Part shown: piece by piece, positions 3,770 to 15,684 of the stretch | How the letters are laid out: each line of letters opens with the position of its first letter | Numbering within the stretch: the first letter of the stretch is position 1 | Assembly (NCBI GenBank): GCA_963704275.1 | Contig: CAVPHP010000006.1 | Coordinates: 8,352 to 72,351 of the forward strand | Direction of reading: 5' to 3' | Length of the DNA: 64,000 nt | DNA from: an uncultured Ignavibacteriaceae bacterium | GTDB taxonomy: Bacteria; Bacteroidota; Ignavibacteria; Ignavibacteriales; Ignavibacteriaceae | Translations under genes and position numbers: made by a program | The notes under the pieces: model-generated | Seen by the model: the letters and a program-made list of their open reading frames with translations, nothing else | The model's database searches: none | What the model was told of the DNA's origin: nothing

Positions 3770-4294
3770 TTAAGCTTTTACTTTTGCAAGTGCAGGAACT
3801 TTGTGTTTTACAAATTCATAAACTCCAAACATTACTCCAACAAAGAATAAATCTCCAATTAAAGAATTTTGGAAAAATGGAATTGCTGCTGTGTAGCTTG
3901 CTAATAATCCGGCAGGAGTTTTAGGATACAAAGTTCCAAGTGCCCAAACACCAAAGTTTGTAATTACAAAGAAACTTATTGAAGCTGTAAGTGAAGTAAA
4001 TAATAATTTTTTTACACTTACTTTTTTTAGCATAAAAATTCCTAAAACAACAATTAAAGCAAAGCTTAAATAGACAATCCAGGCATAAGAATAAATTCCG
4101 ATAATCAAGTCTGTTAAAAATATTGCAGCTAACGGAATTACAAATGCGAAAGTTTTTTTGCTAAAATATGCGCCGCCAAATAAAGCCATTGCAGCTATAG
4201 GTGCAAAGTTTGGTGGATGTGGTAACAATCTTAAAAAAGCTGCTCCAAAAACCATTAGGGTTAAAACCCAAAATTTTGGTGTTAATTTTTCCAT
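3770..4294 (-). CDS. polytopic membrane protein (DUF6580-like), putative inner-membrane corrinoid transporter
   Basis: 174 aa with about 5-6 hydrophobic helices. The N-terminal motif is FLRLLPHPPNFAPIAAMALFGGAYF. It is the second gene of the operon headed by the cobalamin riboswitch and TonB receptor. The functional call rests on context only. Confidence 0.55.
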   Translation of the reverse strand: MEKLTPKFWVLTLMVFGAAFLRLLPHPPNFAPIAAMALFGGAYFSKKTFAFVIPLAAIFLTDLIIGIYSYAWIVYLSFALIVVLGIFMLKKVSVKKLLFTSLTASISFFVITNFGVWALGTLYPKTPAGLLASYTAAIPFFQNSLIGDLFFVGVMFGVYEFVKHKVPALAKVKA

Positions 4295-4390
4295 TTTTAT
4301 TTCCTTTCAGTTAAAATTAAAAAAGAATATTTCTGTTTATAATTAGTTCAAAGATATAGTTTATTAAAGTCAATTGTCAAAGTTTTGTCA

Positions 4391-6346
4391 TTAAAGAGAT
4401 AATTTAATTCCGCCATAAAATGATAATCCCGGAGTAGCATAGCCGAATACCTCTTCATAATCTGTGTCTAAAAGATTTTCGACTCTTACATTCATCCTGA
4501 GAAAATCAAAAACATCATAATGTGCGGCAAAGTTAAGAAGCACATATCCTTTAAGTTCCGTTCTTTCAAATGTTGAAAAATCAATATCATCACGAGTCCC
4601 AACCCAGATAACTTCAGCATTAAAATTGGTCTTTGCAGAAAAAGAATAACTAGTAAAAAAACCTAGTTTACTTTCCGGTCGGCGCAATAACTTTGTATCA
4701 AAGTCTGATGAATTTGGACTAACATCTCTCGCGTCTGTAAAAGTATAATTAACTTTTATTTCTAAATCATCAATCGGCTTAGTCTGAAAATAAAATTCTA
4801 AACCCTTTGTTACAGCCTGTTTAATATTAATTGTTTTGAATGTTTGATAATCAAAACCAAACATATCGCTAAACTTATTGTAGAAAAAAGTAGTTCCAAA
4901 AGTCAAATTTTGTTTAAAGAAAAATTGCTCGATACCAAAATCCCAACCAAAACTTTCTTCGGGATTTAGATTTTCATTTCCATAAGCAGGATCATATAAA
5001 TAATATAATGATGGTGCTTTAAATCCTGTTCCAATTGTTGCTTTGATTTTTGTTCCTGTTTCCCAAAGCATATAAGCAGGTGCAATTCTGTAAGTAAATT
5101 GTGAACCAAATTTACTGTGTTCATCTAATCTTAAACCGGCTGCAATAAAAAAACCTTCCTCAAATTTTATTTGATCCTGTAAAAAGGCACTAATTGTATT
5201 AGCATCTTTATTAGGAATAACACTTGCATAATCAGGCAATAGAATATAGTTGAAGGAATAATATTCAGAAGATGATTCTTCTTTCTCAAATTCAATTCCA
5301 GCGGTTAACAAATTTCCTTTGCTAAGTTGAAAATCATTTTGCCAATCAATTTTATATCTTCTTCCATCATATAAAGCATTTGAATAATAGGCGCTTGCAG
5401 ATGAAGTATCAAATGAATTTTTTCTAACATTTCTTAAAAACGTTAAGCCAAGTTTCTGATTCCAATTACCATTTAATAACTTAATTTTTCCTTCCCCTCG
5501 AATTGAAAACTCTTCTTGTTTAGTTAGATAGGTCGGATCGTCACCAAACATTCCACCAAACTGATCATTGTCTGATTCTGATTTTAAAAATCTTGTATTC
5601 AAATTTATTTCTGCATTATCACTTAAATCATAACCTAAAACAGAAGTAAGATTATTAAAAGTATATCCATCTTTTTCTGTGTTGCCGTACTTTTCTGATG
5701 CCGCAGAAAAACCATCGCTGCCTGTTCTACTGAATGCAAGTGAATAATTTAATTTCTTAATTGATCCGTTTAATCCAATCATTCCTTTATAAGTATTGTA
5801 AGTACCGCCTTCTGTAAGTAAAGAAAATTTTGGCGAACCATTTCCTTTTTTTGTAATGATGTTAATAACTCCGGCAAGTGCATCAGAGCCATAAAGTGTA
5901 GATTGCGGACCTCGTAAAACTTCTATCCGTTCAATGTTATCAACAGGCAATGCGGAAAAATCGTAAACACCCGATGGATCGTTTGTAAGATTAACTTCAA
6001 CGCCATCAATCAAAACTAAAGTGTGTGATGAGTTTGAACCGCGAATATAAATATTTGATAAAGTTCCGTTGCCGCCTTGTCTTGTAAAGCTGATTCCTGT
6101 TTCATTTCTCAAAACATCAAATACGTTGTTGGAGTTACTGTTTGATAATTGTTTAGCATCTATTACAGAAATTGAACTGGCAAGCTGCAAAGTATTAGCA
6201 TTAGTTTTTGTTGCAGAAACTACCACTTCACTAAGTTTGTAATATCCTGCCGTATCAGTTTTTTGGATAATAGATTCCTGAGGAACGGTTTGATGAAAAG
6301 TGAAAAGAAAAATAAAAAGAGTAAAAAGAAATTTTGTTTTGTACAT
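4391..6346 (-). CDS. btuB: TonB-dependent outer-membrane receptor, BtuB-like (cobalamin/corrinoid uptake)
   Basis: 651 aa with a signal peptide and a TonB-box-like LSEVVVSATKT. The plug motifs are IERIEVLRGPQSTLYGSDALAGVINIITK. The C-terminal beta-barrel ends GLSFYGGIKLSL. A cobalamin riboswitch lies directly upstream on the same strand. Confidence 0.85.
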   Translation of the reverse strand: MYKTKFLFTLFIFLFTFHQTVPQESIIQKTDTAGYYKLSEVVVSATKTNANTLQLASSISVIDAKQLSNSNSNNVFDVLRNETGISFTRQGGNGTLSNIYIRGSNSSHTLVLIDGVEVNLTNDPSGVYDFSALPVDNIERIEVLRGPQSTLYGSDALAGVINIITKKGNGSPKFSLLTEGGTYNTYKGMIGLNGSIKKLNYSLAFSRTGSDGFSAASEKYGNTEKDGYTFNNLTSVLGYDLSDNAEINLNTRFLKSESDNDQFGGMFGDDPTYLTKQEEFSIRGEGKIKLLNGNWNQKLGLTFLRNVRKNSFDTSSASAYYSNALYDGRRYKIDWQNDFQLSKGNLLTAGIEFEKEESSSEYYSFNYILLPDYASVIPNKDANTISAFLQDQIKFEEGFFIAAGLRLDEHSKFGSQFTYRIAPAYMLWETGTKIKATIGTGFKAPSLYYLYDPAYGNENLNPEESFGWDFGIEQFFFKQNLTFGTTFFYNKFSDMFGFDYQTFKTINIKQAVTKGLEFYFQTKPIDDLEIKVNYTFTDARDVSPNSSDFDTKLLRRPESKLGFFTSYSFSAKTNFNAEVIWVGTRDDIDFSTFERTELKGYVLLNFAAHYDVFDFLRMNVRVENLLDTDYEEVFGYATPGLSFYGGIKLSL

Positions 6347-9317: not shown

Positions 9318-9989
9318 ATGGGCTGGTTTTTAAAATTCACAAACTCCTCAATCGGCAAAAAATTTATGATGGCTGTTACGGGGAGTTTTCTGCTAATATT
9401 TTTAATCGTTCATTTGGTTGGAAATATAACTTTGTTTTTTGGTGCAAATGCTTTTAATGCTTATGTATCAACCTTAGATGTTGTTAAACCTCTGATCAGG
9501 GTGATCGAAGTAGTTTTACTCGGAGCTTTTGTTCTGCATATCTTTAATGGATTAAGATTGTGGTTGGAAAATAAAAGGGCACGAGGAGTAACATACAAGG
9601 TAAACGGTTCAAAAGATAACAGTACTATCTTTTCAAGAACTATGGCAGTTACAGGATCAATTATATTAATTTTTCTTGTATCCCATCTTGCAACTTTCTT
9701 CTGGAGATTCAATGTTCATGATCCTATGGGACTTGCAACACACCATCAATATTACGATGTAGTTGTTTACTTTTTTAATATGTGGTGGTACTCAATTCTC
9801 TATGTAGTTGCTATGATATTCTTAGGTTATCATCTTAATCACGGATTTCAAAGTGCATTTCAAACATTTGGTTGGAATCACAATAGATACTTTCCAACGA
9901 TTAAAAAAATTGGAATGATTTACGCAATAATTATGGCTTTAGGATTTGCCTCTATGCCACTTTACTTTTTGCTAACAGGAGGTAACTAA
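9318..9989 (+). CDS. sdhC: succinate dehydrogenase/fumarate reductase cytochrome b subunit (b558 family)
   Basis: 223 aa with about five TM helices carrying conserved His residues ([35 protein letters not shown]). It lies immediately upstream of, and overlaps (ATGA-type junction at 9989), the flavoprotein subunit. Confidence 0.85.
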
Positions 9990-11899
9990 TGACAAAGCTT
10001 GATTCAAAAATTCCGGCAGGAAACATAGCTGAAAAATGGACGAACCATAAATTCAATATGAAGCTGGTTAATCCATCCAACAAAAGAAAATTTGATATAA
10101 TTGTTGTTGGTACAGGCTTAGCAGGCGCATCCGCCGCGGCTTCTTTAGGAGAACTTGGTTATAATGTTAAAGCATTTACATTTCATGATAGTGCAAGAAG
10201 AGCACATAGTATTTCTGCTCAAGGTGGAATAAATGCTTCAAAAAATTATCAGAACGATGGTGATTCAACTTATAGATTATTTTATGATACTGTTAAAGGC
10301 GGCGATTTCCGTGCACGCGAAGCAAATGTTCATCGTCTTGCAGAGGTAAGCGGAAATATTATTGATCAGTGTGTTGCTCAAGGCGTGCCTTTTGCAAGAG
10401 ATTACGGCGGACTTTTAGATAACCGTTCTTTTGGTGGTGCCCAAGTTTCAAGAACCTTTTATGCAAGAGGACAAACGGGGCAGCAATTATTGCTCGGTGC
10501 AGTTAGTGCGTTGAATCGGCAGGTTGATAAAGGCTCTGTTAAGTTATTCTTAAGAAGAGAAATGCTTGATGTTGTAATTGTAGATGGTGCCGCAAAAGGA
10601 ATTGTAGTAAGAAATTTAATAACAGGCGAGATTGAAAAATATTCAGCGCACGCTGTTGTACTTGCAACCGGTGGATACGCAAACGTTTTTTTCTTATCAA
10701 CAAACGCAATGAACTGTAATGCAACTGCAATCTGGCGCGCGCACAAACGCGGAGCATATTTTGCAAATCCTAGTTTTACACAAATTCATCCAACTTGTTT
10801 ACCATTGCACGGTGAATCACAATCAAAATTGACTTTGATGAGTGAATCGTTACGTAATGATGGAAGAGTTTGGGTATCAAAGAAAAAAGGGGATATGAGA
10901 AATCCTGGAGATATTCCTGAGGATGAAAGAGATTATTATCTTGAAAGAAAATATCCTTCCTTTGGAAATTTAGCTCCGAGAGATATTTCATCACGTGCAG
11001 CCAAGGAAGTTTGTGATGAAGGAAGAGGCGTTAAAGGCGGCGAAGCTGTTTATCTTGATTTTAAAGATGCAATAAATCGTCTTGGACAAAAAGTAATTGA
11101 AGAACGATACGGAAACTTGTTTGAAATTTACGAAACCATAACGGGAGAAAATCCATACAAAACTCCAATGATGATTTATCCTGCCCCGCATTACACAATG
11201 GGCGGATTGTGGGTGGATTATAATTTGATGAGTAATGTTCCTGGATTATTTGTACTTGGTGAAGCAAACTTTTCAGATCACGGCGCAAACCGATTGGGTG
11301 CTTCTGCACTTATGCAAGGTTTAGCTGACGGTTACTTTGTTATTCCTTACACTATGGGAAATTATCTTGGTGGCGATAAACCAACACTAGTAAAAACTGA
11401 TCATCCGGAATTTGAAAAAGTTGCCAAAGAAGTAAAAGATCTAACAAATAAACTTCTTTCTATAAAAGGAAAACGAACTGTTGATGATTTACATAAGCAG
11501 CTTGGTAGAATTATGTGGGATAATGTTGGAATGGGCAGAACAGAAGCCGGATTGAAAAAAACAATTGAAGAAATAAGAAAAGTAAAAGAAGAATTCTGGA
11601 AAAATGTAACGATTCCCGGAAGCGGTGATGATGTTAATCAAACATTAGAACGTGCAGGAAGATTAGTTGATTATTTTGAGCTTGGTGAGTTAATGGCACT
11701 CGATGCTCTTGATAGAAAAGAATCTTGCGGTGGACATTTCCGTGAAGAGTATCAGTTTGAAGATGGCGAAGCTAAGCGTGATGATGAAAACTATTCTTAT
11801 GTTGCTGCATGGGAGTTTGCAGGTGAGAATAAATGGAATCTTCACAAAGAAGAATTGAAGTACGAATATGTAAAACAGGCAATCAGGAGTTACAAATAG
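9989..11899 (+). CDS. sdhA: succinate dehydrogenase/fumarate reductase flavoprotein subunit
   Basis: 636 aa. The FAD fold is [18 protein letters not shown], the covalent-FAD His context is [13 protein letters not shown], and the active-site region is [14 protein letters not shown]. The stop TAG is at 11897..11899. Confidence 0.95.
11886..11898. repeat. left copy of 13-bp direct repeat GGAGTTACAAATA flanking the nuclease cassette
   Basis: Exact 13-mer, also present at 13008..13020. The extended match is 18/20 (ggagttacaaataGtTgaag vs ggagttacaaataAtGgaag). It comprises the last codons of sdhA. Confidence 0.9.
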
Positions 11900-12988
11900 T
11901 TGAAGATTGCAGAAGCAGATATTTCTGAAAAAACTTCTTTTACTAAGATTGTTGAGTTAATTAATCAATCTAAACAAAGAGCTTTTACTTCTGTAAATAA
12001 AGAACTGATAAATCTGTATTGGAACATTGGCGAGTATATTTCTAAAAAAACTGAATCGGATGGTTGGGGGAAAAGTACGGTTGAGAAGTTGTCTAAATTT
12101 ATCCAAAAAGAAATGATTGGCTCGCGTGGTTTTTCTAATCAGAATTTATGGAGAATGAAGCAGTTTTATGAGGTTTATTCAGAATTCCCAAAACTCTCAA
12201 CAGTGTTGAGAGAATTGACCTGGTCGAATAATCTTCATATTCTTACAAAAACGAAGACTATTAAGGAAAAAGAGTTCTACATTAATCTTGCAATTAACGA
12301 AAAATATTCTGCACGCGAACTTGAGCGGCAAATAAATTCTGGGGTTTTTGAGCGGTTTTTACTTTCCAATCAAAAACTGTCAACACTGATGACAGAATCA
12401 CAAAACCAAACTGATGATTCAAAACTCTCACCACTGGTGAGAGAATTACAAAATGCTCAATTACAGCAAATAAACGAGATTTTTAAGGATAAGTATATAT
12501 TTGAGTTTTTAGATTTACCCAAAGATTTTAGCGAGAAAGATTTAAGAAAATCACTTGTAAAAAATCTTAGAGAATTTATTCTGGAATTGGGAAAAGGTTT
12601 TACTTTTGTTGGAGAGGAATATCGATTACAAGTTAGTACTAAAGATTTTTTTGTTGATTTACTTTTTTATCATCGCGGGTTACAATGTTTGGTTGCTATA
12701 GATTTAAAGATTGATGATTTTAGTCCGGAGTATCTTGGCAAAATGAATTTTTATCTTGAAGCACTTGATAAAACACAAAGGTTAGATAACGAAAATCCGA
12801 GTGTTGGATTAATCTTATGTAAAACTAAAGATGATGAAATTGTTAGGTATGCGCTTAACAGAAGTTTATCGCCGACTAAAATTGCAGAGTATGAAACTCA
12901 GTTGATTGATAAAAATATCTTAAAGAAAAAATTGCACGAACTTGGTGAGTATTATTTGTCTGCAGAAAAAATTAAATCCGCTAATTAA
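11900..12988 (+). CDS. YhcG/DUF1016-family PD-(D/E)XK nuclease domain protein inserted between sdhA and sdhB
   Basis: 362 aa. The N-terminal region [59 protein letters not shown] is typical of the DUF1016 N-domain. The C-terminal nuclease core is [25 protein letters not shown] (D...D-x-K). The TTG start lies 10 nt after the AGGAG in the left repeat. Confidence 0.8.
12194..12443. repeat. three codon-phased palindromic units inside the nuclease gene
   Basis: 12194..12212 is ctctcaaca-g-tgttgagag (perfect 9+9). 12377..12395 is ctgtcaaca-c-tgatgacag (8/9). 12425..12443 is ctctcacca-c-tggtgagag (perfect 9+9). Each unit is embedded in caaaaCTnTCAnCAnTGnTGAnAGaat. All start in codon phase 0 and encode LSTVLRE / LSTLMTE / LSPLVRE. 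Confidence 0.85.
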
Positions 12989-13007
12989 AAAAGTTTGAAA
13001 ATAATTT

Positions 13008-13020
13008 GGAGTTACAAATA
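13008..13020. repeat. right copy of 13-bp direct repeat GGAGTTACAAATA
   Basis: Identical to 11886..11898. It is directly followed by the sdhB ATG at 13021 and supplies a GGAG ribosome-binding site. Confidence 0.9.
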
Positions 13021-13791
13021 ATGGAAGCAAAAAAGTTAAATCTTACTCTTAACATTTGGAGACAGAAAAATAATAAATCTGTTGGAAGTTTTGCTGAATA
13101 CAAAGTTCAGGTTTCTCCTGATGCATCTTTTCTTGAAATGCTTGATGAGTTAAATAATACCCTGGAATTAAAGGGCGAAGAAGCAATACACTTTGAAAGT
13201 GATTGCCGTGAAGGAATTTGCGGAACTTGCGGATTAGTTATAAATGGACACGCCCATGGACCAATACCAAAAATTGCAACTTGCCAATTACATATGCGTA
13301 ACTTTAAAGATGGTGAAACAATTTGGGTTGAACCTTTTAGAGCAAAAGCTTTTCCTATTATAAAAGATTTAATGGTAGATCGCTCCGGCTTTGATGAAAT
13401 TTTACAAGCCGGCGGTTATGTTTCTATAAACACTGGCGGGGTTCCTGATGGTAATGCTATCCCAATTCAAAAAGAAGTTTCAAGCTTGGCGATGGATGCT
13501 GCGGCTTGTATTGGTTGCGGAGCGTGTGTTGCTGCTTGCAAAAATGCAAGTGCTATGCTATTTGTTTCAGCAAAGGTTTCCCAATATGCTCTGCTTCCAC
13601 AGGGCCAGCCGGAACGATACATGAGAGTTGAAAAAATGGTGAAGGTAATGGATGATCTTGGGTTTGGAAGCTGTACAAATACTTACGCCTGCGAAGCTGA
13701 ATGTCCTAAAGGAATCTCTGTTACAAATATTGCCCGAATGAACAGAGATTTTATTGCGGCTAAGATAAAGTCTAAAGAAGTGGAAGTTTAG
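13021..13791 (+). CDS. sdhB: succinate dehydrogenase/fumarate reductase iron-sulfur subunit
   Basis: The 2Fe-2S motif is [11 protein letters not shown]. The 4Fe-4S/3Fe-4S motifs are [11 protein letters not shown] and [15 protein letters not shown] 13021 is preferred over the track TTG at 13006 because of the GGAG spacing. Confidence 0.9.
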
Positions 13792-13911: not shown

Positions 13912-15684
13912 ATGTTTGAAAACGAAATAAAATTTATTAGTGACTTTACACTTAACAAAGTAAAAGATCTTGGATCTTTTATAACTGTTGAAAAATTACT
14001 TGCAACAGATATTCATCCTTCTGTAAAAAAATATGTAGAGGGCGAAATAGATTATCTGATTTCTGAAGATCGCAAGAAGTTGATTGAGAATTCTTTGTTT
14101 GATTATTCAGGTGCTGAAATCTCAAATTATTTTAATCTTATCGGTAACGAAATAAAGAAGACTAAAAAGATTTCTTTTGAAGACATTAAAAACATTGTGC
14201 TTCAAGCCGTTTCCTTTAATGCTAATTACGTTGTTCGCCCAAAATGGTCGTTATCAAAATTAATTTTTGGAAACAACAAATCAGTTTCGGTTAATGAACT
14301 TAAAATGATGCTGCGTTACACTTATTATTATGAATATCTTAACAATGTTTTCATCGCATACTTATCAAAGAAAAAAATTCTGAATATTACAGTTACTGAG
14401 TTTGAACTAATTGTAAATAAGATTGACCGCGAATTATTTATGCTTCATCAAAGCAAGCTTGTTGATAATGCACTTTATGCAATTGCAGATTATTTTAGTA
14501 TTGGCGGACTTAATAAATCAAATGTTAGTGTTGAGGCTGTGGAAAATTTCTTAAAAGAAAAAAATCTTACAGAACTTCTTTTCAAACTAAAACGAGCTTA
14601 TTCAAATTCATCTAAAAAGAAAGCTGATATTGAGGATATCCGAAAAATTCTTTACTCAACTTTAAGTATTGATTCCCCATTCGTTGAAGATGCAAACGGC
14701 GAAGGAACAGCCGTTGGCGATACTTATTTTGAAAATCCACTTAAAGGTGAATTTATAAATGATGAAGAAATTTTAGAAAATGAAAATGAAATCGATGCAA
14801 ATTCTGAAATTGAATTGGATACAAAAGAAGAATTAAATGATATCGCAAATGAAGAAAATGAAATTGAATCTTTAAATATTGTGGAAGAAAAAGTTGAAGA
14901 AACCCCATTAGAAGTTGTTGAAGAAGCATTATCTAAAACTGAACCGGAAAAATTTGAAATAAATGAAGATGACAGAATTGAAACATCTGAGCTGAGAGAA
15001 CTTGAAATAAATAGTGATGATTCTGAAAGAGAACTGAATGTAAATGAAGCTGAATTACCCGAAACAGATAAATCAATTTTGAATGATTCGATTGATGAAG
15101 AAGATGTACTTGCTCATCTTACAGAAGAAATGGAAAGTGATGATGAAATAGTTATACTTGATGATAAAGAGCAGGAAGACTTATTAAATTTTTATGATAA
15201 TGAACTTGAAATATCGATTGATGATGATGTACCAATAAATAAAGATAAAAAAGAAAATGTGGATGATAATATTTCTGTGGATATAACTAATTTGGAATTT
15301 GAACATGAACTACCAATTGCTGACGAATTAGATCAGGAAGTTTCGATTGAAAAGTTGGATTTTGAAAAAGATTTACTCGGTGTTGATGAAACTAAAGATA
15401 GTGATTCAACAGAGGAAGAAAGTACAATCGAACCATTTACCAAAAAACGAAGTGATGACGTTTTTACATATCTTTCTAAAAAAGAAATTGATCGGATCAT
15501 AAAAAATCTTTTTAATTCTGATAGCGAAGATTTTGCAAACACGATAGAAAAAATGACGATGTGCAGTACTTACGAAGAAGCCTCTGCAATTTTAGATAAT
15601 GTTTTTAAGTATGCACGTATTAAACCTCACAGCCGCGATGCAAATACTTTAACTAATGCTGTATCCAAATATTTTAATGTCTAA
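13912..15684 (+). CDS. hypothetical protein with an about 250-aa hyper-acidic low-complexity central region
   Basis: 590 aa ORF with no recognised motifs. Residues about 260-510 are dominated by E/D/N/I/L. The N-terminal (about 250 aa) and C-terminal (about 80 aa) regions look globular. Confidence 0.55.
   Translation: MFENEIKFISDFTLNKVKDLGSFITVEKLLATDIHPSVKKYVEGEIDYLISEDRKKLIENSLFDYSGAEISNYFNLIGNEIKKTKKISFEDIKNIVLQAVSFNANYVVRPKWSLSKLIFGNNKSVSVNELKMMLRYTYYYEYLNNVFIAYLSKKKILNITVTEFELIVNKIDRELFMLHQSKLVDNALYAIADYFSIGGLNKSNVSVEAVENFLKEKNLTELLFKLKRAYSNSSKKKADIEDIRKILYSTLSIDSPFVEDANGEGTAVGDTYFENPLKGEFINDEEILENENEIDANSEIELDTKEELNDIANEENEIESLNIVEEKVEETPLEVVEEALSKTEPEKFEINEDDRIETSELRELEINSDDSERELNVNEAELPETDKSILNDSIDEEDVLAHLTEEMESDDEIVILDDKEQEDLLNFYDNELEISIDDDVPINKDKKENVDDNISVDITNLEFEHELPIADELDQEVSIEKLDFEKDLLGVDETKDSDSTEEESTIEPFTKKRSDDVFTYLSKKEIDRIIKNLFNSDSEDFANTIEKMTMCSTYEEASAILDNVFKYARIKPHSRDANTLTNAVSKYFNV

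Follow-up and report, generated by a model that had tools for sequence, protein, structure and literature searches.

Position-fixed palindromes within DUF1016/YhcG nuclease genes are selected at the nucleotide level and may be DNA sites of the encoded protein

What keeps a translated sequence palindromic? The question is raised by a nuclease gene of the DUF1016/YhcG family, which lies in a 64,000-nt stretch of DNA from an uncultured Ignavibacteriaceae bacterium (contig CAVPHP010000006.1; the whole stretch is here called the window) and carries three copies of a short palindrome in its coding sequence. Comparison with homologous genes showed that these units are under nucleotide-level selection, position-fixed and codon-phased throughout the DUF1016/YhcG family. 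As to what they are selected for, the reading explored below, the probability of which was judged from the sequences to be about even, is that each unit is a cognate palindromic site, in double-stranded DNA, of the protein encoded by the gene itself. Their role would then most likely be the negative autoregulation, or the loading or tethering, of a potentially toxic nuclease.

Palindromic units under nucleotide-level selection

In the initial annotation three palindromic copies had been reported from the gene, and all three were found where they had been placed (Table 1). The pattern CTCTCANCANTGNTGAGAG, searched with at most three mismatches, had three matches in the 64-kb window, all within the nuclease gene, whereas the mean in shuffled windows was 0.09 and none of 100 shuffles reached three. 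A repeat search grouped the units into a single 28-nt direct-repeat family; they are spaced by 183 and 48 nt, distances that are both divisible by three. Unit 2 lies exactly 61 codons 3' of unit 1 and unit 3 another 16 codons past unit 2, and all three begin at a codon boundary of the open reading frame (ORF), as had been proposed. Also the compensatory changes were borne out, both the A-to-C with T-to-G change between copies 1 and 3 and the compensated C-to-G with G-to-C pair in copy 2, which in addition has one mismatch. With its flanks the conserved unit covers about 27 nt (A AAA [19 nt] AA W T) and is thus larger than the 19-nt core. As single strands the units form the predicted stems: with DNA parameters, units 1, 2 and 3 had folding energies of -7.6, -4.5 and -7.5 kcal/mol and z-scores of -3.4, -2.1 and -4.1, respectively.

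The homologues were drawn from 160 loci of genomes and metagenomes, at 41–90% protein identity, and were collected with search patterns taken from other regions of the protein. They originated from Ignavibacteriota, Bacteroidota, Firmicutes, Campylobacterota, Cyanobacteria, Verrucomicrobia, Proteobacteria and several archaea. The 19 nt beginning nine codons ahead of an invariant Trp, which correspond to unit 1 and are called site 1, had at least eight of nine pairs in 122 of the 154 distinct genes and all nine in 70, and a second unit was present at exactly +61 codons from site 1 in 85 homologues. Units 2 and 3 of the window gene are located in the linker between the two protein domains, and of these unit 3, which encodes KLSPLVRE, is the copy-number-variable one. 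One, two and three linker copies were found in homologues of 346, 361–362 and 376–377 aa, respectively, with a period of 15–16 codons, and close relatives differ in their number.

The 41 homologues from viral contigs were more distant (30–55% identity), and 31 of them had at least seven of nine pairs exactly nine codons before the Trp. Their units had many different sequences, one being GTGCAACAACTTGTTGCAC, which encodes VQQLVAQ. Five paralogues belonging to other subfamilies had TTCCAGTCAGTGACTGGAA, GGTCAGACAGTGTCTGACG, CTCGTACCATTGGTACGAG, GTGAAGCAACTTGCTTCAC and AGTCACGCACTGTGTGACC at the equivalent position. A further observation was made at five loci (L027, L033, L086, L116 and L146), where a second DUF1016 paralogue of a different subfamily, with its own distinct palindrome, is present within about 1.5 kb; such paralogues suggest coexisting specificity variants. 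Outside DUF1016 genes the unit was practically missing: no other copy was present in the window, and in 1.08 Mb of loci 171 matches were inside DUF1016 ORFs and three outside, these three abutting ORF ends.

The gene yhcG of Escherichia coli K-12 (L161, positions 6133–6230) includes three units 39 nt apart, in the same codon phase as in the window gene. In strain EC93 (L162) and in O157 strains, which were compared together with a further locus, L164, unit 1 is the perfect palindrome CGC CAG ACA GTG TCT GGC G. It shares the apical ACA-G-TGT with window unit 1, and four of its six outer pairs have been replaced on both arms. When the flanks are included, the E. coli units are palindromes of 27–31 nt with DNA folding energies of -11 to -14 kcal/mol.

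The choice of codons within the units was strongly restricted. Synonymous-codon entropy at the unit columns was 0.4–1.1 bits against 1.9–2.5 bits for pooled usage, and this drop was confined to the unit columns, every other conserved column of the gene having free codon use. The dominant codons within the unit were CCA (93%), CTC (88%), TCA (79%), CTG (86%) and AGA (92%). When each gene kept its own peptide and the codons were resampled from family usage, the mean was 3.4 of nine pairs and only 0.5% reached eight, whereas the observed mean was 7.9 and 79% reached eight. Also the amino acids covary, since 71% of the real peptides can encode a perfect palindrome but only 22% of column-shuffled ones. 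The proposal that selection acts on pairing in the nucleic acid, in addition to the repeated peptide, is thus strongly supported. Homologues with the same peptides and no palindromy, which had been named as the outcome that would speak against it, were not what the comparison found.

The arms of the palindrome change together. Among 100 distinct site-1 units that were aligned, 91.3% of the cells in the 8-bp helix were paired, and seven of its eight pairs change on both sides. Doubly changed cells numbered 133, compared with 52 ± 4.5 in shuffles (none of 500 reached the observed value), and the covariation score was 0.297, compared with 0.03–0.11 for slid registers. A tree constructed from the remaining protein sequence implied about 67 independent replacements of one Watson-Crick pair by another, 32 of these at pair 7-13. 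In this reading frame, first codon positions are paired with first positions and second with third. A synonymous third position changes in step with the non-synonymous base that it pairs with; for example, C at position 3 accompanies AGA in codon 104, and G accompanies ACA there. The half-sites within one gene also agree above chance (92/152 vs 52 ± 7).

Protein residues that follow the palindrome

Three residues encoded outside the palindrome were found to track its base pairs. When pair 7:13 is A:T, residue 138 is Phe, Val or Ala in 49 of 54 genes and residue 109 is Ser in 53 of 54; when it is C:G, residue 138 is Lys in 46 of 50 and residue 109 Thr in 37 of 50; and when it is G:C, residue 138 is Ser and residue 109 Thr in eight of ten each. 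The association with the pair was highly significant for residue 138 (p = 3e-22) as well as for residue 109 (p = 4e-14). Among the 25 closest gene pairs of differing 7:13 type, Lys138 was present solely in the C:G member in 21. The linker units follow the residue-138 rule too (p 1.4e-6), and the three exceptions at site 1 each have a fitting linker unit. The third residue, Arg81, goes together with G:C at pair 3:17, and in stems of mixed type this rule can be told apart from an effect of position 1.

Both rules were recovered in the independent set of viral-contig homologues, with Arg81 in 12/13 vs 0/9 (p ~2e-5) and Lys or Arg at 138 in 9/10 vs 0/13 (p ~1e-5). The palindromes of this set encode different residues (Gln101, Ala104), and both rules persist at identities below 40%. 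In E. coli YhcG, Val138 is combined with A7:T13 in all three units. Contacts of Arg or Lys with guanine and of hydrophobic residues with thymine are classical in direct readout. A dyad-symmetric site conserved at the nucleotide level, accompanied by specificity residues that change with it, is also what characterises helix-turn-helix (HTH) pairings of the ParB/Noc type.

Recombination appears to have contributed to the correspondence of residues and base pairs, judging from a local burst of differences between the window gene and its 90%-identical relative L001. The segments compared were 12200–12320 and 12380–12440 of the window with 4301–4421 and 4481–4541 of L001. The differences are concentrated in codons 101–140 (27 nt and 13 aa within 120 nt) and 161–180, outside of which only 0–7 nt per 60 differ, and the burst sets in at the midpoint of site 1. 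Either an exchange of modules or diversifying selection on the segment that putatively reads DNA could lie behind it. Ancient allelic module exchange as the sole cause of the correspondence was rejected, as synonymous divergence in the block was not clearly raised among 25 close pairs.

In the full-length model, unit 1, which codes for K98–L106, corresponds to a short helix (aa 97–105) just ahead of the conserved W108 in the confidently folded helical N-domain. The copies in the linker belong to a segment of low confidence (predicted local distance difference test, pLDDT, 32–50), and the codon-level conservation of the linker is therefore hard to ascribe to protein structure. When the N-domain was modelled alone, its pLDDT was 91.7 and its predicted template modelling score (pTM) 0.77. 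The top 17 matches of this domain in the Foldseek search of PDB were all ParB/Noc, with weak E-values of 0.17–2.2. The best of this weakly scored set was 6y93_A, the Noc DNA-binding domain on a palindromic site (target-normalised TM 0.74, root mean square deviation 3.1 Å, probability 1.00). The resemblance is one of fold: sequence and profile searches of the N-domain against solved structures or ParB gave no link, DUF1016_N being the sole match even at E-values up to 10, and hhalign against an approximate Spo0J sequence gave a probability of 0.2. The DUF1016 protein was not a member of the ParB family proper, which has an N-terminal ParB/Srx CTPase domain and ParB-type motifs. The C-terminal domain resembled EndoMS/NucS and other PD-(D/E)XK nucleases in the full-length Foldseek search, which was informative for the PD-(D/E)XK core only. 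ParB and Noc are dimeric HTH proteins reading 16-bp palindromes.

Of the roles suggested in the initial annotation, operator sites for a dimeric protein fit best, considering the ParB/Noc-like fold, the residues that track base pairs and the absence of a wobble signature (see below); it would be about equally reasonable to accept this reading as to doubt it. DUF1016_N would be a ParB/Noc-like HTH module that as a dimer reads a dyad-symmetric site of 19–27 bp, and at least one such site would be embedded in the coding sequence of almost every member of the family. Site 1 is situated in the DNA coding for helix 97–105, immediately 5' of the putative recognition helix W108–K117, and genes of the subfamily studied here have one to four additional copies in the flexible linker. 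Codon usage at the site and some of the amino acids encoded there (LSTLLRE, VSPLVTQ, VQQLVAQ and others) would be dictated by the operator, and the base-contacting residues of the protein would change together with the site. The control element would in this way travel within the ORF, which would suit a promoterless cassette landing in host operons, for example between sdhA and sdhB.

Rare non-coding copies beside the gene hint at such a control element. In the archaeal locus L053 (Methanolapillus) copies at 3786–3804 and 4979–4997 are situated about 215 nt upstream of the gene and 4 nt past its stop codon, and in L135 a copy at 1437–1455 follows the stop codon after 36 nt. Within the ~90 nt that precede the ATG in L097 there are a copy at 3914–3932 and a second unit-like palindrome, one on either side of a TATAAAA-like sequence.

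Several points weigh against binding of the protein to its own sites. The ParB/Noc match is of fold only, with the weak E-values given above and no sequence or profile similarity, and the assignment of helices 97–105 and 108–117 as the HTH is drawn from it. A dimer bound to duplex DNA need not impose symmetry at positions that it does not contact. The residue-80 rule seen in the main set (Arg or Lys with G1:C19) was not replicated in the viral set, where it applied in 3/16. Because the base changes also alter residues 99, 101, 103, 104 and 105, compensation within the protein may account for part of the correspondence. An intragenic roadblock would be expected to lower the expression of the downstream sdhB, yet the arrangement has long been stable, and the spacings of the units (183, 45–48 and 39 bp) have no helical phasing. 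Finally, a half-site of the duplex and the stem of an extruded hairpin are identical in sequence, so that linear duplex and cruciform are inseparable by these data.

The binding-site reading also has a stronger form, to which somewhat less than even probability was given. The system would be self-referential, the DNA coding for the first HTH helix being across the family the operator read by that same domain, and a 27-bp segment of operator and reader would diversify as one. Motifs such as VQQLVAQ, LSTLLRE and VSPLVTQ would be translations of binding sites instead of protein-selected sequences, each subfamily would have its own pair of site and protein, and a simple code would combine Arg81 with G3 and Lys or Arg at 138 with G13.

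Alternatives to a duplex site

An autoregulatory RNA structure was among the roles first suggested, and it stays as a rival, though an unlikely one. It would be an mRNA stem-loop with an 8-bp stem, a 3-nt loop and A-rich single-stranded flanks, possibly bound by the encoded protein, controlling the translation, stability or processing of the nuclease message. The predicted folding of the units and the strong covariation agree with it, as does the RNA z-score of -7.65 of the E. coli cluster. Pair 9-11 is the weakest, being A.C in about a third of the linker units and in that sense loop-like. In the main subfamily both flanks are A in the sense strand and are unable to pair with each other. All copies, including the rare non-coding ones, are in or near a probable transcript.

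The covariation was nevertheless not that expected of a structured RNA, in which G:U pairs are tolerated and only one strand counts. Non-Watson-Crick cells included 30 G:T, 26 A:C and 77 others, that is, no excess of wobble. Synonymous changes that would produce U:G were avoided as much as true mismatches: CTC had changed to CTT in only two of 152 genes, even though CTT is used more often. Position 9 of site 1, a synonymous one, is kept as A opposite T11, so that the symmetry reaches the single central base, which is of no use to a hairpin. The correspondences of Arg and Lys with guanine fit readout in the major groove of B-DNA better than an A-form stem. The Rfam search with the window gene and E. 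coli yhcG produced only chance-level matches far below gathering scores, and the presence of the element in both bacteria and archaea argues against a host-specific RNA factor.

Also the nucleotides beside the core are constrained. Lys beside the units was encoded by AAA over AAG in a ratio of 191:3, compared with 1626:796 elsewhere (p 1e-27), and Glu and Gln by NAA over NAG in 218:5, compared with 2830:1229 (p 1e-26). The base preceding the unit was A in 234/258 vs 1026/3133 elsewhere (p 3e-78). Such a constraint would fit a need for A/T base pairs beside the core. Other subfamilies have flanks with full symmetry (AATT..AATT, ATTT..AAAT, AAAA..TTTT). Because of the missing wobble excess, the avoidance of CTT, the symmetry at position 9 and the constraint on the flanks, a dyad-symmetric duplex site appears favoured over an RNA hairpin.

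The second rival, which is considered rather unlikely, takes the units to be single-stranded DNA hairpins or cruciforms. These would serve the PD-(D/E)XK domain, or recombination, as a substrate or a structure to be recognised, and would drive rearrangement, copy-number change or mobility. Pairing within a strand explains the covariation simply, DNA pairing predicts no preference for wobble, and the hairpins are stable, from -7.5 kcal/mol in the window to -14 kcal/mol in E. coli. Among the nucleases that the C-terminal domain resembles are structure- or mismatch-specific ones such as EndoMS/NucS, and since a half-site equals a hairpin stem, the residue-to-base rules are compatible with it.

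The rearrangements cluster at the units. In P0047, a homologue of 301 aa from an ENA metagenome contig, the stretch from site 1 to the first linker unit is missing, precisely 61 codons, which is what recombination or slippage between these two directly repeated units would produce. E. coli strains have one to three tandem 39-nt units, K-12 having three and O157:H7 SS52 (L163) only one after a deletion of 78 nt. In about 1100 of 3973 genomes the homology to yhcG ends just past unit 3. At two such loci inspected, yhcG is cut 3–4 nt after unit 3 and followed by about 470 nt of unrelated DNA, which holds a 101-aa ORF annotated as a transposase. The units of E. coli yhcG coincide with rearrangement breakpoints.

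Short repeats rearrange in any case, however, and stems of 8–9 bp with a centre of 1–3 nt extrude poorly. The unit is not located at cassette ends, and the neighbouring genes of the DUF1016 homologues are heterogeneous, with no consistently linked transposase, integrase or HUH gene among them. The segment between units, when inverted, kept an open frame in just four of 76 genes, and an invertible, shufflon-type segment was rejected. With the unit confined to DUF1016 genes, no transposase or integrase associated with it in the neighbourhoods and the inversion test negative, the suggestion of cassette-mobility hairpins resembling IS200/IS605 ends, attC sites or REP sequences found no support. 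The ParB/Noc-like fold, too, points to the binding of duplex DNA.

The third rival requires no function of the palindromes, which would be perpetuated by template-switch conversion of one arm by the other (quasi-palindrome correction) together with protein-level selection on the non-synonymous partners. Arm conversion has been proposed as the maintenance mechanism of coding palindromes in the mitochondria of Nematomorpha (PMC6649704). In the present units each pair joins a constrained base in codon position 1 or 2 to one in position 1 or 3, the most permissive phase, and the symmetry up to the centre and the mismatches without wobble bias are as predicted. Arm conversion cannot, however, yield constrained non-complementary flanks (p 1e-26 to 3e-78), and it was judged improbable. 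The unit keeps its position nine codons before the Trp in bacteria, archaea and viral contigs down to 30% identity, residues 81 and 138 outside the palindrome match its base pairs, and the unit is confined to one gene family.

An origin of the palindromes as a side effect of the recent duplication, within the gene, of a peptide-coding stretch can be practically dismissed: the one, two or three linker copies among close relatives show that the multiplicity of units 2 and 3 is young, and this part of the suggestion stands, but as an explanation of palindromy itself duplication is refuted, since site 1 and the +61-codon unit are conserved at the DNA level in many phyla at 41–90% identity and palindromy is far above what the peptide requires.

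Some narrower candidates were also rejected. Long-range pairing of unit 1 with a linker unit was not the main constraint, as local pairing (124/152) exceeded pairing across units (92/152). A -1 frameshift site at C-CCA-AAA before unit 1 had a heptamer that was not conserved (position -6 is C in 32/152) and no spacer. A hammerhead-like CUGAUGA was present in unit 2 only and considered a coincidence. Mimicry of a tRNA anticodon loop, LexA-, CRP- or Fur-type boxes and a CRISPR-like mini-array were judged unfit in sequence or spacing.

Genomic setting, related systems and implications

The nuclease gene is inserted in a succinate dehydrogenase/fumarate reductase operon, exactly at the boundary of the genes for the flavoprotein and the iron-sulfur subunits (Table 1), its TTG start codon abutting the sdhA/frdA stop codon. 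The protein matched Pfam DUF1016_N at aa 16–152 (E 3.5e-42, 144.2 bits, gathering score 32.8) and YhcG_C at aa 193–345 (E 1.8e-57, 194 bits, gathering score 32.5). PADLOC assigned it to PDC-S02, a candidate defence family (E 3.9e-124). A direct repeat duplicates the junction of stop codon, ribosome-binding site and start codon on both sides of the gene, the two copies being 84% identical in the repeat search. In the relatives L001 (90%), L002 (75%) and L003 (66%) the junction repeat is also present and ORFs of matching lengths follow in the same order; these flanking ORFs were matched by length and order, not by homology. The insertion between sdhA and sdhB thus appears old and stable in this Ignavibacteria-like lineage. 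Directly downstream of the sdh genes there is an ORF of 590 aa, the long low-complexity centre of which is extremely acidic.

Table 1. Positions in the window of the palindromic units, the residue codons that track them, the nuclease gene and its surroundings.
Feature	Position	Strand	Description
Unit 1 (site 1)	12190..12216		AAAA-CTCTCAACAGTGTTGAGAG-AATT; core 12194-12212, perfect 9+1+9
Unit 2 (first linker copy)	12373..12399		AAAA-CTGTCAACACTGATGACAG-AATC; core 12377-12395, 8/9 pairs, A.A mismatch at 7-13
Unit 3 (second linker copy)	12421..12447		AAAA-CTCTCACCACTGGTGAGAG-AATT; core 12425-12443, perfect
Codons N80, Q81	12137..12142	+	Residue 81 tracks pair 3:17; Arg with G:C, here Gln with C:G
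Codons W108-K117	12221..12250	+	Putative HTH recognition helix, W-S/T-N/H-N motif; helix 108-117 in models; W108 invariant
Codon S109	12224-12226	+	Residue 109 tracks pair 7:13
Codon A138	12311..12313	+	Residue 138 tracks pair 7:13; hydrophobic with A:T (unit 1 here), Lys/Arg with C:G
DUF1016/YhcG-family PD-(D/E)XK nuclease gene	11900..12988	+	362 aa, TTG start, ORF
Junction repeat, left copy	11881..11905	+	25 nt; sdhA/frdA end and nuclease start; exact 13-mer GGAGTTACAAATA at 11886-11898
Junction repeat, right copy	13003..13027	+	Ribosome-binding region and sdhB/frdB ATG (13021); exact 13-mer at 13008-13020
sdh operon	9318..13791		Gene order sdhC, sdhA, nuclease, sdhB
sdhC	9318-9989		
sdhA	9989-11899		Flavoprotein subunit
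sdhB	13021-13791		Iron-sulfur subunit
590-aa ORF	13912..15684	+	Acidic low-complexity centre rich in E, D, N and I

The closest likeness is to ParB-parS and Noc-NBS, which have a helical HTH domain of the same fold class, the match being at fold level only, and a short palindrome conserved in nucleotides across phyla. In these systems a few residues, which evolve with the site, determine specificity, and a parS site is found inside the coding sequence of spo0J (parB) in Bacillus subtilis. A cognate site within the gene of its binding protein is therefore of a known kind; unusual here would be that it is universal in the family, fixed in position and placed in the segment coding for the DNA-binding domain. 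DUF1016 proteins differ from ParB in having neither its N-terminal CTPase domain nor sequence similarity to it. The ParB site is 16 bp, whereas the DUF1016 site has an odd length of 19–27 bp with one central base pair and is intragenic in essentially every member, always at the same codon position. DUF1016_N has a PD-(D/E)XK nuclease as its partner domain, and binding by DUF1016 is a prediction only.

A second likeness is to the C proteins and C-boxes of restriction-modification (R-M) systems and to other autoregulatory HTH repressors, where a dimeric HTH protein and a palindromic operator control a potentially toxic mobile nuclease, as is supposed for DUF1016. DUF1016 genes often occur within Type I R-M loci (PMC9881135). 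C-boxes are located in promoter regions, and regulator and nuclease are separate proteins, whereas the DUF1016 operator would be translated and would constrain the protein, upstream copies being rare (L097, L053).

The coding palindromes of Nematomorpha mitochondria (PMC6649704) and the in-frame palindromic elements of Rickettsia are likewise translated inverted repeats, the arms of which are kept complementary by codon degeneracy. They are, however, long (up to 284 bp) or mobile, scattered over unrelated genes and dynamic in gain and loss. The DUF1016 units are short, have long been fixed in position in one family, have constrained non-complementary flanks and are matched by residues elsewhere in the protein; dynamic gain and loss with no constraint beyond the arms, which marks a self-perpetuating palindrome of the Nematomorpha type, was not seen in them. 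REP/BIME (repetitive extragenic palindrome) sequences, IS200/IS605 ends and attC sites share the short imperfect palindromes with compensatory changes, but they are extragenic or at element ends, multicopy in the genome and linked to RAYT/TnpA or integrases, none of which applies to the DUF1016 unit.

No account of palindromes inside DUF1016/YhcG genes was found in the searchable literature or in Rfam. The literature on DUF1016/YhcG/PDC-S02 covered only fold predictions (nuclease), locus context (mobile elements, R-M loci) and a divergent non-coding RNA.

DUF1016/YhcG is a very large uncharacterised nuclease family, with at least 8000 scored protein matches, and its members are found in R-M loci, integrative and conjugative elements, phage-like contigs and candidate defence islands as well as in E. 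coli K-12. If the units are binding sites of the encoded proteins, they would provide the first concrete molecular handle for the family, consisting of a predicted recognition sequence for each member and predicted specificity residues. They would also be a case of a DNA site dictating codon use and amino-acid sequence over deep evolutionary time, which would bear on how conserved protein motifs are read and on scans for synonymous constraint. The arrangement would further suggest how a promoterless mobile nuclease cassette carries its control element within the ORF. With its three tandem palindromes of 27–31 nt and its natural alleles of one to three copies, yhcG of E. coli would make the idea testable in a model organism.

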